DNA of 64,000 nt from an uncultured cyanobacterium (GTDB lineage: Bacteria > Cyanobacteriota > Cyanobacteriia > PCC-6307 > Cyanobiaceae): positions 672,001-736,000 of the forward strand of contig CAVXWZ010000011.1 in the NCBI GenBank assembly GCA_963765575.1, in the 5' to 3' direction. Below are positions 54,447 to 62,192 of this stretch, in pieces (positions within the stretch are counted from its first letter, which is position 1; the number at the start of each line of letters is the position of its first letter). The position numbers and the translations under genes are program-made. The notes under the pieces are model-generated. The model made no database searches. It saw only the letters and a program-made list of their open reading frames with translations, and had not been told where the DNA came from.

Positions 54447-56888
54447 ATGGCCCTGGAGAATTCCCCGTCCCAGCCGGGCTCTGTCGTGGGACCCGTGTCC
54501 CTCGGGGCGGCCACCCTGTCCAGTCCCCTGGCGGAGGCCATCCGCCGGCATCTCTTTTACAGCCAGGCCAAATCCCCCTCCCTGGCCACCCTCCATGACC
54601 ACTACCGGGCCCTGGCCCTGGCCGTGCGCGACCGCCTGTTGCAGAAGTGGGTCGATACGGCCGAGACCTACACCCAGAGCCATGTGCGCACGGCGGTGTA
54701 CCTCTCCGCTGAGTTCCTGCTCGGGCCCCACCTGGACAACAACCTCGTGAATCTGGGCATGCGGGACGAGGCCCGCGATGCCTGCTCGGAACTGGGGCTC
54801 GACCTTGAGGCGCTTCTGGCGGAGGAACCGGAGCCAGGCCTGGGCAACGGCGGTCTCGGCCGCCTGGCCGCCTGCTTTCAGGAGTCGATGGCCACGCTGG
54901 AGCTGCCCGCCATCGGCTATGGCATCCGCTACGAGTTCGGCATCTTCCGCCAGCAGATCACCTCCCAGGGCCAGCAGGAGGGCACCGACCCCTGGCTCGC
55001 CCAGGGCAACCCCTGGGAGGTGATCCGTCCGGAGTGGAGCTATCCCGTGGAGATCGGCGGCCAGACCGTGGTCGGTGTGGCCTACGACACCCCGATCCTG
55101 GGCTTCGGGGTCAACACCGCCAACACCCTGCGCCTGTGGTCGGCCACGGCCCCCGATGCCTTCGATTTCGCCTCCTTCAATGCCGGTGATTACGCCCGGG
55201 CGGTGTTGCGCAAGATGCAGTCGGAGACCCTCTCCAAAGTTCTCTATCCCAACGACGAGTTCGAGCAGGGCAAGCGCCTGCGGCTTTCGCAGCAGATCTT
55301 CTTCGTGAGCTGCTCCCTGCAGGACATGTTCCGCATCCTCAAGGGACAGGGACTGAAGCCCGAGCAGTTCCACACGAAATTCGCCGTTCAGCTCAACGAC
55401 ACCCATCCGGCGATCACCGTGGCCGAGCTGATGCGGTTGCTGCTCGATGTCCATCACCTCGATTGGGACACTGCCTGGGAGATCACCACCGGCAGCCTCA
55501 GCTACACCAACCACACACTGTTGCCGGAGGCCCTGGAAACCTGGGGTGTGGATCTGTTTGAGCAGTTGCTGCCGCGCCAGCTGCAGATCATCTATGAAAT
55601 CAACTCCCGTTTCCTGCGCATGGTGCGTATCCGCTACCCCGGTCATCCCGAGAAGCTGGGCCGCCTGTCATTGATTGAGGAGGGTCCCCAGCGGCGGGTG
55701 CGCATGGCCAACCTGGCGGTGGTGGGATGCCACCACACCAATGGCGTTGCCGAGCTGCACAGCCGGTTGCTGCGGCAGCACGTGTTGGCCGATTTCGCCG
55801 AACTCTGGCCCGAGCGCTTCACCAATGTCACCAACGGCGTGACGCCGCGGCGGTGGATGGCGGTGGCCAACCCGCCCCTCGCTGAGCTGTTGGATGATGT
55901 TCTGGGTGAGAGCTGGCGCCACGATCTCGATGCGCTCCAGGGTCTCAAGGCCCACGCCGCTGACCCGGCTTTTCTGGAGCGTTGGCAGGGCGTGAAGGAG
56001 CGCGGCAAGCGCCGCCTGATCCAGCACGTGCACGACCAACTCGGCCTGCTTTTGGATCACACCTCCCTGTTTGATGTGCAGGTGAAGCGGATCCACGAAT
56101 ACAAGCGTCAGCACCTGGCTGCTCTGTATATTGTGGAGCGCTACCTGCGCCTGCGCAACGGTGAGGATCTGCCGCCCCGCACGTTCCTGTTCGGCGGCAA
56201 GGCGGCCCCTGGCTATGCCATGGCCAAGCTGATCATCCGCTTGATTGTTGGTATCGCCGAGATTGTCAACATGGATCCGGCCATGCAGGGTCGTCTGCGG
56301 GTGGTGTTCCTGCCTAACTTCAGTGTGAAACTGGGCCAGCTGGTGTATCCAGCGGTGGATCTCTCCGAGCAGATCTCCACCGCCGGCAAGGAAGCCTCCG
56401 GTACCGGAAACATGAAGATGGCCCTCAATGGTGCGGTGACGATCGGCACCCTGGATGGTGCCAATGTTGAGATCCATGAGCGGGTGGGTGACGACAACTT
56501 CTTCCTGTTCGGCCACACCACCGAGCAGGTGGCAGAGCTCGATCAACTCGGCTACCACCCGATGGCCTGGATCGACCAGGACCCGATGGTGCGCGAGGTG
56601 CTTGCCCTGATCGGCTCGGGCCAGTTCAGCGAGGGCAACCGGGAACTCTTCCACCCGCTGCTGGCCAGCCTCACCAGCCACGATCCCTTCAAGGTGATGG
56701 CCGACCTGCCCGACTACCGCCGCGCCCAGGAGGACGTGGATCGGGCCTGGATCGACCGCCCGGGCTGGGCGCGCATGTCGCTGGCCAACACCGCCTCCTG
56801 TGGCTTCTTCTCCAGTGATCGCTCGATCCAGGAGTACGCCGAACGCATCTGGGAGGTGCCACCCGTGCCGGTGCCCGGCCAGGGCTGA
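54447..56888 (+). CDS. glgP: glycogen/alpha-glucan phosphorylase
   Basis: GLGNGGLGRLAAC, QLNDTHP, KRIHEYKRQ and EASGTGNMK (PLP Lys) motifs. Confidence 0.96.
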   Translation: MALENSPSQPGSVVGPVSLGAATLSSPLAEAIRRHLFYSQAKSPSLATLHDHYRALALAVRDRLLQKWVDTAETYTQSHVRTAVYLSAEFLLGPHLDNNLVNLGMRDEARDACSELGLDLEALLAEEPEPGLGNGGLGRLAACFQESMATLELPAIGYGIRYEFGIFRQQITSQGQQEGTDPWLAQGNPWEVIRPEWSYPVEIGGQTVVGVAYDTPILGFGVNTANTLRLWSATAPDAFDFASFNAGDYARAVLRKMQSETLSKVLYPNDEFEQGKRLRLSQQIFFVSCSLQDMFRILKGQGLKPEQFHTKFAVQLNDTHPAITVAELMRLLLDVHHLDWDTAWEITTGSLSYTNHTLLPEALETWGVDLFEQLLPRQLQIIYEINSRFLRMVRIRYPGHPEKLGRLSLIEEGPQRRVRMANLAVVGCHHTNGVAELHSRLLRQHVLADFAELWPERFTNVTNGVTPRRWMAVANPPLAELLDDVLGESWRHDLDALQGLKAHAADPAFLERWQGVKERGKRRLIQHVHDQLGLLLDHTSLFDVQVKRIHEYKRQHLAALYIVERYLRLRNGEDLPPRTFLFGGKAAPGYAMAKLIIRLIVGIAEIVNMDPAMQGRLRVVFLPNFSVKLGQLVYPAVDLSEQISTAGKEASGTGNMKMALNGAVTIGTLDGANVEIHERVGDDNFFLFGHTTEQVAELDQLGYHPMAWIDQDPMVREVLALIGSGQFSEGNRELFHPLLASLTSHDPFKVMADLPDYRRAQEDVDRAWIDRPGWARMSLANTASCGFFSSDRSIQEYAERIWEVPPVPVPGQG

Positions 56889-56985
56889 GGCCCCCATCGG
56901 ACAGCTCCATCCCCACCCCGCGGCCGGCTGTGCTGCAGGTGGCCCGCCCCGATCCTCAGCACCCCCTCAGCCAGGATGGGCGCTG

Positions 56986-59675: not shown

Positions 59676-59774
59676 AGGCCGTTGGCTTCTGTGCGTTAAC
59701 CCTCACCCACTTTGCCTTTAGGCCGCTCTTAGACCAGCCTGGCCAGGATGCGCAAAGGAGCCAGTCGTCTCGCC

Positions 59775-62192
59775 ATGACCTTCACCCTCGAGCCCACTGC
59801 CACAGCGGTCCCGACCCCGGCCAGCAGCGAGGAGCTGCAGAGGATCGACGCCTGGTGGCGGGCCGCCAACTACCTGGCGGTGGGGATGATCTACCTGCGT
59901 GACAACCCGCTGCTGCGCGAACCGCTGCGGCCCGAGCACATCAAGAGCCGGCTGCTGGGGCACTGGGGATCCAGTCCTGGCCAGGCGTTCATCTGGGCGC
60001 ACGCCAACCGGCTGATCCGGCAGCGGGATCTGGACATGATCTACCTCTCGGGTCCTGGCCACGGCGCCCCCGGCGTGCTGGCCCCCACCTATCTCGATGG
60101 CTCCTACAGCGAGATCTATCCGGACAAGTCGCAGGACGCTGTGGGCATGCAGCGGTTCATGAAGCAGTTTTCGTTCCCCGGCCACATCGGCAGCCACTGC
60201 ACCCCGGAAACCCCCGGCTCGATTCACGAGGGCGGTGAACTGGGCTACGTGCTCTCCCACGCCTGCGGGGCGGTGTTCGACAACCCGGAGCTGATCGCCA
60301 TCGCCTGCGTGGGCGACGGCGAGGCCGAAACCGGGCCCCTGGCCACCAGCTGGCACATCAACAAATTTCTCAACCCGATCGGTGACGGCGCCGTGCTGCC
60401 GGTGCTGCACCTCAACGGCTACAAGATCGCCAATCCCACCCTGCTGGCCCGCATCCCCAAGGAGGAGCTGGCCAGCCTGATGCGTGGCTACGGCTGGGAG
60501 CCCCTGTTTGTGGAGGGCCACGAACCCATGGCCATGCACCAGGCCATGGCTGCGGCGATGGATGAGGCCATCGCCAGGATCCAGAGCATCCGCGCCGAGG
60601 CCCGTGCCAGTGGCGAGGCGGTGCGGCCGGCCTGGCCGATGATCGTGCTGCGCTCCCCCAAGGGCTGGACCGGTCCCAAGGCGCTGGGTAATAAGAAGCT
60701 CGAGAATTTCTGGCGCGCCCACCAGGTGCCCCTGGCCGCTCCCCAGAGCGATCCTGTCCAGCTGCAGATGCTGGAGGACTGGATGAAGAGCTACCGGCCC
60801 TGGGAGCTCTTTGATGCTGACGGCACCCTCATCCCTGAGCTCAAGGAGCTCTCGCCGCGGGGGGCCCTGCGGATGGGTTCCAACCCCCACGCCAACGGCG
60901 GCCTGCTGCGCCACAAACTGCACCTGCCGCCGATCGAAACCTATGCCGTGGCCCTGCAGGGACCCGGCCAGAGCGAGGCCGAGAACACCTACCCGTTGGG
61001 GGAGCTGCTGCGCGACGCCATCGGCCTCAATCCAGATTCCCTGCGGGTGTTTGGTCCCGATGAAACGGCCTCCAACCGGCTGCAGGCGATCTATGAGCGC
61101 AGCAAGAAGGTGTGGATGGAAGAGCTCCTGCCCGAAGACATGAACGGCAGCGAGCTGGCCCGCAATGGCCGGGTGGTGGAGATGCTCAGCGAGCACACCC
61201 TGGTGGGGATGATGGAGGGCTATCTGCTCACCGGCCGCTATGGCTTCTTCCACACCTACGAGGCCTTTGCCCATGTGATCGCCTCGATGTTCAACCAGCA
61301 CGCCAAGTGGCTGGAGAGTTGCATCCACCACGCCCCCTGGCGGGCGCCGATCGGCCCCTGGAACTGCCTGATCTCCTCCACGGTGTGGCGCCAGGACCAC
61401 AACGGCTTCACCCACCAGGACCCGGGCTTCATCGACCTGGCCGGCAACAAGAGTGGCGAGGTGGTGCGGGTGTACATGCCGGCTGATGCCAACTGTCTGC
61501 TGGCGGTGGCTGAGGAGGCGCTGGTGGAGAGCAACGTCTGCAACATCATCGTTTCCGATAAGCAGAAACACCTGCAGTATCTTGCCCTCGATCAGGCCCG
61601 CGCCCACGTGGCCAAGGGCATCGGCCTGTGGAGCTGGGCCAGCAACGACGACTGCGGCACGGAGCCCGATGAGCCCGATGTTGTGATGGCCTGCGCCGGC
61701 GACATCCCCACCAAGGAGACCCTGGCGGCGGTGGAAATCCTGCGGCGTGAAACCCCCAATCTCAAGATCCGCGTGCTCAACGTTGTCAAGCTCTTTGCTC
61801 TGACCAACCCGGAGGAACATCCGCACGGCTTGAGTGATCGAGATTTCGACACCCTGTTCACCAAAAACAGGCCGGTGATGTTCAACTTCCATGGTTATCC
61901 TTGGCTGATTCACCGTCTCACCTATCGCCGTACCAACCACGCCAACATCCACGTGCGTGGTTATAAGGAAAAGGGCAACATCAACACGCCCCTGGAGCTG
62001 GCGATGAACAACCAGATTGACCGCTTCAACCTGGTGATTGATGTCATCGACCGGGTGCCTGGCCTGGGCTCAAGGGCGGCGCATATCAAGGAGCGCATGA
62101 AGGAGGAAATCCTCAGCCACCGCGCCTATGCCCATGAGCACGGCATGGACGACCCCACCATCACCCACTGGCGCTGGGGACTTCAGGCCTGA
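59775..62192 (+). CDS. xfp: xylulose-5-phosphate/fructose-6-phosphate phosphoketolase
   Basis: [38 protein letters not shown] and [12 protein letters not shown] motifs. Confidence 0.96.

Follow-up and report, generated by a model that had tools for sequence, protein, structure and literature searches.

The bifid shunt and non-oxidative glycolysis combine a phosphoketolase with carbon rearrangement and a bisphosphatase. Here, we report on four genes in a 64,000-nt window (the whole stretch of DNA analyzed; contig CAVXWZ010000011.1, positions 672,001 to 736,000) of an uncultured cyanobacterium of the family Cyanobiaceae, which encode a glycogen phosphorylase (glgP), a Gpm2/Shb17-type histidine phosphatase, a divergent transketolase-like protein, here named TK2, and a phosphoketolase (xfp). 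The same principle of phosphoketolase, rearrangement and bisphosphatase underlies the engineered sedoheptulose-bisphosphatase (SBPase)-phosphoketolase cycle SCTPK, which gives 3 acetyl-phosphate per hexose with no net redox change and for which Shb17 was among the SBPases tried (PMC10468489). Compared with SCTPK and the bifid shunt, the window holds a natural, predicted glycogen-fed block in a phototroph, and this block lacks transaldolase (Tal), aldolase (Fba), Rpe/Rpi and acetate kinase (AckA).

Among cyanobacteria, the described counterpart is a pathway in which Synechococcus elongatus PCC 7942 couples XPK to acetate kinase. According to that study (PMC10365998), the motif PWx2Hx3YRx7HxRx31R was defined there for ATP inhibition of Xpk, and the enzyme, active when ATP falls, serves as a Calvin-cycle brake and acts with acetate kinase under dark anaerobic stress. 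The window Xfp carries all eight residues of this motif (8/8; residues 709–760, positions 61899–62054, + strand) and thus belongs with the ATP-inhibited phosphoketolases. In PCC 7942, we take Synpcc7942_2079 to be ackA. A candidate phosphatase gene, Synpcc7942_2078, bears the locus tag two before that of xpk (2080) (PMC7311316). The window differs from PCC 7942 in that xfp is linked to glgP, the Gpm2/Shb17-type phosphatase and TK2, with ackA unlinked. Dark fermentation via phosphoketolase is already known. In the literature covered, where subscription journals were thinly represented, neither the block nor TK2 was found described, nor was any Gpm2/Shb17 enzyme from a cyanobacterium; what appears new is this block and the assignment of its phosphatase.

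The quartet and the larger block of its relatives

On balance, we favor the view that the quartet is what deletions have left of a carbohydrate block that varies among cluster 5.2-type picocyanobacteria, and that it would route glycogen to acetyl-phosphate, and thus to ATP or acetyl-CoA, once ATP runs low in the dark or without oxygen. This view starts from the observed gene content, order, motifs and distribution, from which we infer every enzyme activity, co-transcription and flux. The host genome (labeled G000) has 2.71 Mb and 69% GC and is 99.97% complete, and its phycobilisome linker helps to assign it to the picocyanobacteria; other G labels denote compared genomes, L labels fetched loci, P labels phosphatase homologue proteins and C labels contigs.

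As the preliminary description had stated (co-oriented genes, gaps of about 100–150 bp), the four genes stand in a row on the + strand, separated by 97, 151, and 99 bp, and their family assignments hold by domain and model scores. The glgP gene (paralogue A, 54447–56888, 813 aa) encodes a GT35 glycogen/alpha-glucan phosphorylase with a full-length PF00343 domain (E 9e-296) and 1063 bits to TIGR02093 (cut-off 553). It shares 57% identity with a second host glgP paralogue (C2:570382), and in a quick tree the glgP genes of the genus form three paralogue groups. The phosphatase (56986–57603, 205 aa) is predicted to be a metal-independent sugar-bisphosphatase on the basis of its PF00300 domain, closest solved relatives, motifs and fusions. 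TK2 (57755–59675; 639 aa in relatives) has transketolase N, pyr and C domains. The xfp gene (59775–62192, 805 aa) encodes XFP_N, XFP, and XFP_C domains (PF09364/PF03894/PF09363), scores 1418 bits to NF003617 (cut-off 1143) and is the only copy in the host genome (a single tblastn match). An environmental contig of 166 nt with 0 differences covers the end of glgP (58 letters), the entire glgP-phosphatase gap and 11 letters of the phosphatase gene; because it crosses this junction, the junction is not an assembly join. The gap between phosphatase and TK2 was bridged by none of the contigs and no RNA data set was listed for the stretch, two negatives that say nothing about that junction or about expression.

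The 151-bp gap between the phosphatase gene and TK2 contains the degenerate 3′ end of a glucose-6-phosphate isomerase gene, pgi2 (57621–57758, + strand). With a profile built from the Pgi2 C-termini of six relatives, this remnant scored E 4e-4 and ranked second genome-wide, behind the real pgi. Its stop overlaps the start of TK2 (ATGA), just as in the intact pgi2 of relatives. The remnant therefore favors loss in G000 over gain elsewhere, and the quartet is likely, judging by these letters, a deletion-trimmed form of the larger, shuffled block of the relatives. Both the remnant and the split frame of TK2 (see below) had been overlooked in the preliminary description.

TK2 is present in 7 of 32 genomes of the genus, 13 of 201 of the family and 31 of 301 of the phylum. 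The block of G007, G008, and G020 reads glgP-A, (prt), ldh and trk on the opposite strand, glgP-B, phosphatase, pgi2, TK2, (DUF1576), xfp; that of G042 is visible from trk onward, and that of G011 has lost the phosphatase and most of pgi2. An ldh gene lies within the block of G007, G008, G011, and G020. All block members of the relatives are glycogen, hexose-phosphate or fermentation enzymes or unknowns, including a second glgP, pgi2, L-ldh, an alpha-amylase-like gene and ackA. The four functions glgP, phosphatase, TK2, and xfp share one block in five of the seven TK2-bearing genomes of the genus. Related combinations recur in other genera, as phosphatase-pgi-TK2-(amylase)-xfp-ackA (L045, L119), phosphatase-TK2-xfp-ackA without pgi (L047) and phosphatase-xfp-ackA (L126–L128), and in other families, as xfp-glgP-phosphatase-ackA with a phosphatase of a different subfamily (L164), xfp-pgi-glgP (L166) and TK2-trk-xfp (L042). 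In L160, a sap-like gene stands between phosphatase and TK2.

The preliminary description went further and suggested a dedicated four-gene unit. That such a unit is conserved and dedicated is not borne out by our gene-neighborhood comparison: the same uninterrupted order was not found in relatives. Several results weigh against the favored view. The uninterrupted quartet occurs in only one of the seven TK2-bearing genus genomes (G000 itself), where TK2 is moreover frameshifted as deposited. The block of G041 keeps glgP-A, prt, TK2, and xfp and has no phosphatase there, that of G011 likewise has none, and G010 has no TK2. TK2 adjoins xfp in 3 of the 13 TK2-bearing family genomes. Among the best 80 of 419 confirmed TK2 loci, xfp lies within 6 kb in five, two of which duplicate genus loci. 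A sigma-70 consensus scan of the three gaps gave 0 promoters (0.8 expected). In S. elongatus, deletion of xpk left ATP level and dark respiratory CO2 release unchanged in aerobic cycles, and its authors regard Xpk mainly as a Calvin-cycle brake (PMC10365998). To these can be added the expression data for Cyanobium BSA11S (PMC13588713), in which glgP, TK2, and xfp are scattered rather than clustered. The gene cds3232, taken as probable TK2 by gene order only, was unchanged in dark anoxia (log2 fold change −0.16, adjusted p 0.57), so that no dark-anoxic induction was seen in this one strain. The two xfp genes (−0.36 and +0.49, both adjusted p 0.06) were not clearly induced and glgP was not significantly changed (+0.19), in a data set where 1594 genes rose moderately in dark anoxia.

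In the same data, ackA changed by −0.38 (adjusted p 0.012), that is, rose slightly in dark anoxia, and canonical tktA was 5.4-fold higher under light-oxic than dark-anoxic conditions (adjusted p 4e-7; PMC13588713). The pattern fits a TK2 that is a night-stable isoenzyme without induction.

These results bear on a rather unlikely alternative, by which the block is no more than carbohydrate genes loosely gathered, and often reshuffled, at a variable site between glnN and bioA/cpcG. On this reading the quartet is a deletion accident and the genes act singly, Xfp as Calvin-cycle brake and TK2 as spare isoenzyme. The seven TK2-bearing genus genomes indeed show seven different gene contents, pieces survive of pgi (G000, G011) and of the phosphatase gene (G010), and in many other genus members xfp stands at another site next to a different glgP paralogue. 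TK2 is mostly solitary outside the family, and the lack of clear induction in BSA11S suits genes acting singly. Against a loose collection, however, the partners reassemble across genera and families (L164, L166, L042), and both parts of TK2 show an excess of synonymous changes. The earlier terms "accessory" and "dedicated" can be retained for glgP and TK2 but not for xfp and the phosphatase, which are sole genomic copies; xfp is present in 30 of 32 genus genomes (97 of 201 in the family). We conclude that the four-gene unit was overstated, whereas its chemistry is plausible, and keep the trimmed fermentation block as the favored view. Terminator-like sites were not found in the three gaps.

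The histidine phosphatase as a candidate dark bisphosphatase

The closest solved matches of the phosphatase are Gpm2 (2a6p, E 5e-38) and Shb17/YKR043C (E 8e-30), ahead of CobC (1e-20), PspA, and dPGM, which upholds the earlier Shb17-like call. Profile comparison gave the same ranking (Gpm2 E 2e-52 vs. CobC 2e-27). In an alignment of 14 homologues, the motifs RHG, SPxxR, EWxYG, and HGHxxR vary little or not at all; we take RHG to carry the phospho-His and the Glu of EWxYG to be catalytic. The catalytic histidine-phosphatase motifs and HGHxxR are shared with Gpm2 (Rv3214) and yeast Shb17 (PMC4535450). The window protein differs from Shb17 in having His for Tyr at Shb17 position 24, as in Gpm2, and the curated model PRK13462 (NF009993), its best-scoring one, gives 159 bits against a cut-off of 226.

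The gene is the only one of its kind in the host genome; homologues occur in 96 of the 201 family genomes, in single copy in 95 and in two copies in one. Class I fructose-bisphosphatase (FBPase; PF00316) was found in 0 of the 201 family genomes, in a search whose controls gave matches. Beta-cyanobacteria have an fbp-zwf-opcA operon. In a quick tree, the phosphatases fell into two groups. Among 18 non-genus loci fetched from the group that holds the window gene, 12 have the phosphatase next to xfp, ackA, glgP, glgX, pgi or the class I aldolase gene fbaI. In the other, 18 of 20 fetched loci (out of 71 lower-identity matches) lie in zwf-opcA-cobB; their neighborhood in picocyanobacteria (L143–L160), zwf-opcA-cobB-(acylphosphatase-like)-phosphatase-sap-recD, is conserved and has a Gpm2/Shb17-type gene in these 18 of 20. 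The two placements almost never occur together in one genome. In 30 genomes chosen for a sugar-linked copy (or fragment), the cobB flank held no copy (0/30), with one locus ending at cobB, several flanks short, and kin that are not independent.

The position downstream of cobB in these 18 of 20 loci, and the second rank of TIGR03162 among the models, would suit a CobC-type alpha-ribazole phosphatase of cobalamin synthesis. We consider this function very improbable, as the TIGR03162 score is 106 against a cut-off of 163, the profile stands far closer to Gpm2 than to CobC, and the cobB flank lacks a copy in all 30 of those genomes. The fusions argue the same way, with no cob domain among the 120 listed of 146 longer homologues.

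About 85 of these 120 listed homologues carry a sugar-phosphate enzyme domain. Partners comprise beta-phosphoglucomutase (beta-PGM)-family HAD proteins (41), class I aldolase and glucose-6-phosphate isomerase (PGI; 6 each), transaldolase and phosphomannomutase (PMM; 5 each), Xfp and ROK kinase (4 each), acetate kinase (3), and phosphorylase and alpha-PGM (2 each). Six long homologues were inspected, of which five look like real fusions or in-frame joins and one is a frameshift read-through. The aldolase fusions (P0134, P0130, P0151, P0164, P0178, P0228; 538–552 aa) join the phosphatase to class I fructose-bisphosphate aldolase and may represent a bacterial aldolase/phosphatase unrelated to the archaeal bifunctional enzyme.

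The failure to find class I FBPase in the 201 family genomes, the placement either in zwf-opcA or beside sugar genes, and the fusions to aldolase, transaldolase, and PGI together make the phosphatase a good candidate for the missing dark FBPase/SBPase, a role proposed from genomic context and by analogy. In Synechocystis, an unregulated class I FBPase, Slr0952, works in darkness while the thioredoxin/AMP-controlled F/SBPase is off (PMC12675262); because of this precedent, the window phosphatase, of unrelated fold, may fill the same dark-FBPase role. PMC4535450 reports FBPase and SBPase activity for Shb17 and metal-independent FBPase activity of broad specificity for Gpm2.

The main rival to this assignment, which we judge unlikely, is that the enzyme has a different sugar phosphate as its substrate in vivo. 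The likeliest would be glucose-1,6-bisphosphate, which activates phosphoglucomutase, so that the enzyme would tune glycogen entry; alternatively, it would serve in general sugar-phosphate clean-up. Here the commonest fusion partner speaks against the FBPase/SBPase role: 41 of the 120 listed are beta-PGM-family HAD proteins vs. 6 with class I aldolase, to which the 5 PMM and 2 alpha-PGM fusions can be added. So do the high Km of Gpm2 toward fructose-1,6-bisphosphate (FBP; 5.5 mM; PMC4535450) and 6 of the 18 loci of the window-gene group, which have no recognised sugar gene within 8 kb. The usual upstream neighbor in the block, glgP, and the broad specificity of Gpm2 also agree with the rival. 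It accounts less well, however, for the class I aldolase fusions and adjacency (L130), the transaldolase fusions, the zwf-opcA placement in a family where class I FBPase was not found, and the hydrolysis of FBP by both closest characterized relatives. We thus retain the dark FBPase/SBPase as the preferred role.

In two further families of cyanobacteria (L162:4638-9086, L164:5753-12641), the neighbor of xfp and ackA is a histidine phosphatase of a PspA/CobC-like subfamily, 32–34% identical to the window type. That a second subfamily occupies this position suggests a recurring need for a phosphatase near phosphoketolase. Orthologs of the window phosphatase lie within 6 kb in 5 of the best 80 of the 419 confirmed TK2 loci.

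TK2 and its reading frame

TK2 resembles human-type and split transketolases, TktA, and DXS in being a three-domain thiamine enzyme, with the transketolase active-site set. It differs from them in forming a separate tight clade, with 65–79% identity across cyanobacteria, methanotrophs, and a deltaproteobacterium and about 20% to solved enzymes. Its N part scores 59 to TIGR00232 (TktA; cut-off 682), and TK2 scores 19 to TIGR00204 (DXS; cut-off 466), so that it falls within neither model. The clade is apparently uncharacterized and widespread: a database search returned 5998 matches, from which canonical transketolases were not separated, with clusters 49–69% bacterial. Aligned with host TktA, the residues His63, His98, His131, SDG..DDN (a GDG-type thiamine diphosphate motif), His274/276, Arg323, Ser356, Glu377, His427, Asp435, His439, and Arg488 are all invariant or nearly so; we take them to be the donor, cofactor and phosphate sites of transketolase.

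Given the roughly 20% identity to any solved enzyme, we also weighed whether TK2 is a thiamine enzyme with another donor or acceptor and DXS-like architecture. Its AlphaFold monomer superposes better on DXS (TM score 0.55–0.61) than on transketolases (0.33–0.38), and TK2 normally coexists with TktA. This reading is nevertheless quite doubtful: the best profile match (E 7e-27) and the best Foldseek E-values are to human-type transketolase, the active-site positions are preserved, the DXS model score is far below its cut-off, and the model behind the superposition, built on a shallow alignment, has a mean pLDDT of only 72. Models of a single chain from a swapped dimer can collapse. No solved structure of a TK2-clade member was found. 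We carry forward transketolase as the probable reading, while the domain arrangement of the model points to DXS by TM score and to human transketolase by E-value. Replacement of TktA by TK2 was rejected, since TktA is retained in 50 of 52 TK2 genomes, the misses being G020 (86% complete) and G223.

As deposited, TK2 has one extra base at 59357–59361, so that its frame ends after 544 codons and the rest follows in another frame. The base is missing in all four relatives aligned at this spot, the other six TK2 copies of the genus are all open, and an environmental contig of 325 nt with only four differences also lacks it. The intact TK2 of relatives is 86–87% identical to G000 over the N part and 90–95% over the downstream part. 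Host canonical tktA (C2:585045) is broken likewise near codon 559. When the assembly was compared, one way, with 400 kb from a relative, 15 of 245 orthologues proved to be split on the assembly side, of which 12 (about 5%) had net +1/+2 insertions; the other three showed net deletions where the alignment was poor and are not counted. The insertion-bearing orthologues include tktA, lpdA-like, sppA-like, and hoxF-like genes, with example sites at C2:585045 (tktA), C11:512900, C11:527760, C11:390380, C2:587804, and C3:6659. An earlier, smaller test gave two clear cases in 109 intervals. From these sequence comparisons, the frame break is probably an assembly error. A programmed frameshift common to TK2 and tktA was rejected, as similar insertions occur in about 5% of the tested genes of the assembly.

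It is improbable, by the same token, that TK2 is a true pseudogene of a decaying block in this strain. The single base that stops the frame would agree with decay, as would the missing pgi2, ldh, and second glgP of the relatives' block, but the 12 insertions elsewhere (tktA included), the near-identical contig without the extra base, and the conserved downstream part with its synonymous excess speak against it. We thus treat TK2 as a probably intact gene. Wherever in this assembly a pseudogene or a programmed frameshift seems to appear, it warrants distrust.

Some further transketolase loci were recorded. In L037, L038, and L040 (TK2 at 2553 / 6001), TK2 lies between a divergent glgX and a low-oxygen acsF2-ArsR-pentapeptide cluster, an order also seen in the BSA11S annotation. 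In L034 (1543-5442), acpP-fabF is followed by TK2, in a genome with tktA elsewhere; G000 has acpP-fabF-tktA (C2:581782-585398). G136 has a tandem TK2 pair (C1:4765778 and 4769794) with one TAG flagged within each match. In tktA of G418, G444, G467, G485, G501, and G517, all six genomes of one genus, one TGA was flagged in the TIGR00232 match, possibly just a stop near the model end.

Host inventory and the proposed route

Elsewhere the host genome has ackA, pta, tal, glpX, pgi, zwf, and class I aldolase, and the separate tktA (frameshifted as assembled), glpX, second glgP, and ackA for which a check had been suggested are all present. Phosphofructokinase, class I FBPase, and L-lactate dehydrogenase (L-LDH) were not found in this 99.97% complete genome. 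Those members of the bifid shunt or non-oxidative glycolysis that the search covered (Xfp, Tkt, Tal, AckA or Pta, FBPase/SBPase) are thus all represented, without the L-LDH of the bifid shunt. A dark, low-ATP logic gains support from the ATP motif of Xfp, from this inventory and from ldh, pgi, and ackA in the relatives' block; the steady level of the probable TK2 in BSA11S does not support it.

The quartet is flanked by a divergent glutamine synthetase III gene on one side (52015–54186, − strand, GC lowered to 60%) and by a convergent bioA on the other. Relatives share the glutamine synthetase gene, as well as a fatty-acid desaturase gene (50462–51538, −) and an RNA-binding (Rbp) gene (50089–50448, +). 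Further off, three large overlapping genes (17362–26074, −) resemble a recC-recB-recD set, judged by N-terminal sequences. An exact NtcA-type box had 0 matches in the window (0.29 expected). In host contig C1 (L121:7427-10821), the genes after ackA seem to encode first a cNMP-binding and then a TerB-like protein and, in convergent orientation, an FAD-dependent oxidoreductase of the sulfide:quinone-reductase type.

In the proposed route, GlgP would free glucose-1-phosphate from glycogen, which housekeeping Pgm and Pgi would convert to fructose-6-phosphate. Xfp, relieved of ATP inhibition, would split fructose-6-phosphate and xylulose-5-phosphate to acetyl-phosphate for use by AckA or Pta, encoded elsewhere. 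The leftover erythrose-4-phosphate and glyceraldehyde-3-phosphate could be recycled by aldolase and the Gpm2/Shb17-type phosphatase, together with TK2 and transaldolase; in this the phosphatase would take the part of an FBPase/SBPase independent of redox state for as long as GlpX is off. Full recycling by the logic of non-oxidative glycolysis would, by our own arithmetic, yield for each glucosyl unit 3 acetyl-phosphate and 3 ATP, and neither CO2 nor NADH. Such recycling would suit a genome like G000, in which Ldh was not found. Relatives with ldh may run a bifid-shunt variant, with acetate and lactate and an estimated 3.5 ATP.

A broader scenario, which we put forward tentatively, is that alpha-picocyanobacteria (marine Synechococcus, Cyanobium, and kin) swapped the class I dark FBPase for a Gpm2/Shb17-type phosphatase in the zwf-opcA cluster. 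Some lineages might then have relocated this role to a block where an ATP-gated phosphoketolase is joined by a second transketolase clade that is stable at night. The result would be a natural, glycogen-fed non-oxidative glycolysis with a yield of three acetyl-phosphates from each glucose unit, losing no CO2 and keeping redox in balance.

TK2 stands for a large enzyme clade without a solved structure. With GlpX redox-inactivated at night, closing the pentose-phosphate cycle requires an FBPase that works at that time, and the known enzyme was found in none of the 201 genomes searched from this globally dominant family. The phosphatase offers a concrete candidate, a single gene for which one assay would suffice as a test. 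The latest study of picocyanobacteria in dark anoxia, from the Black Sea, invokes lactate and hydrogen, and its main text, as far as accessible, contains neither "xfp" nor "transketolase", and "phosphoketolase" did not register (PMC13588713). Picocyanobacteria persist in dark, anoxic water, and the block described here names a testable route by which they might gain ATP there.

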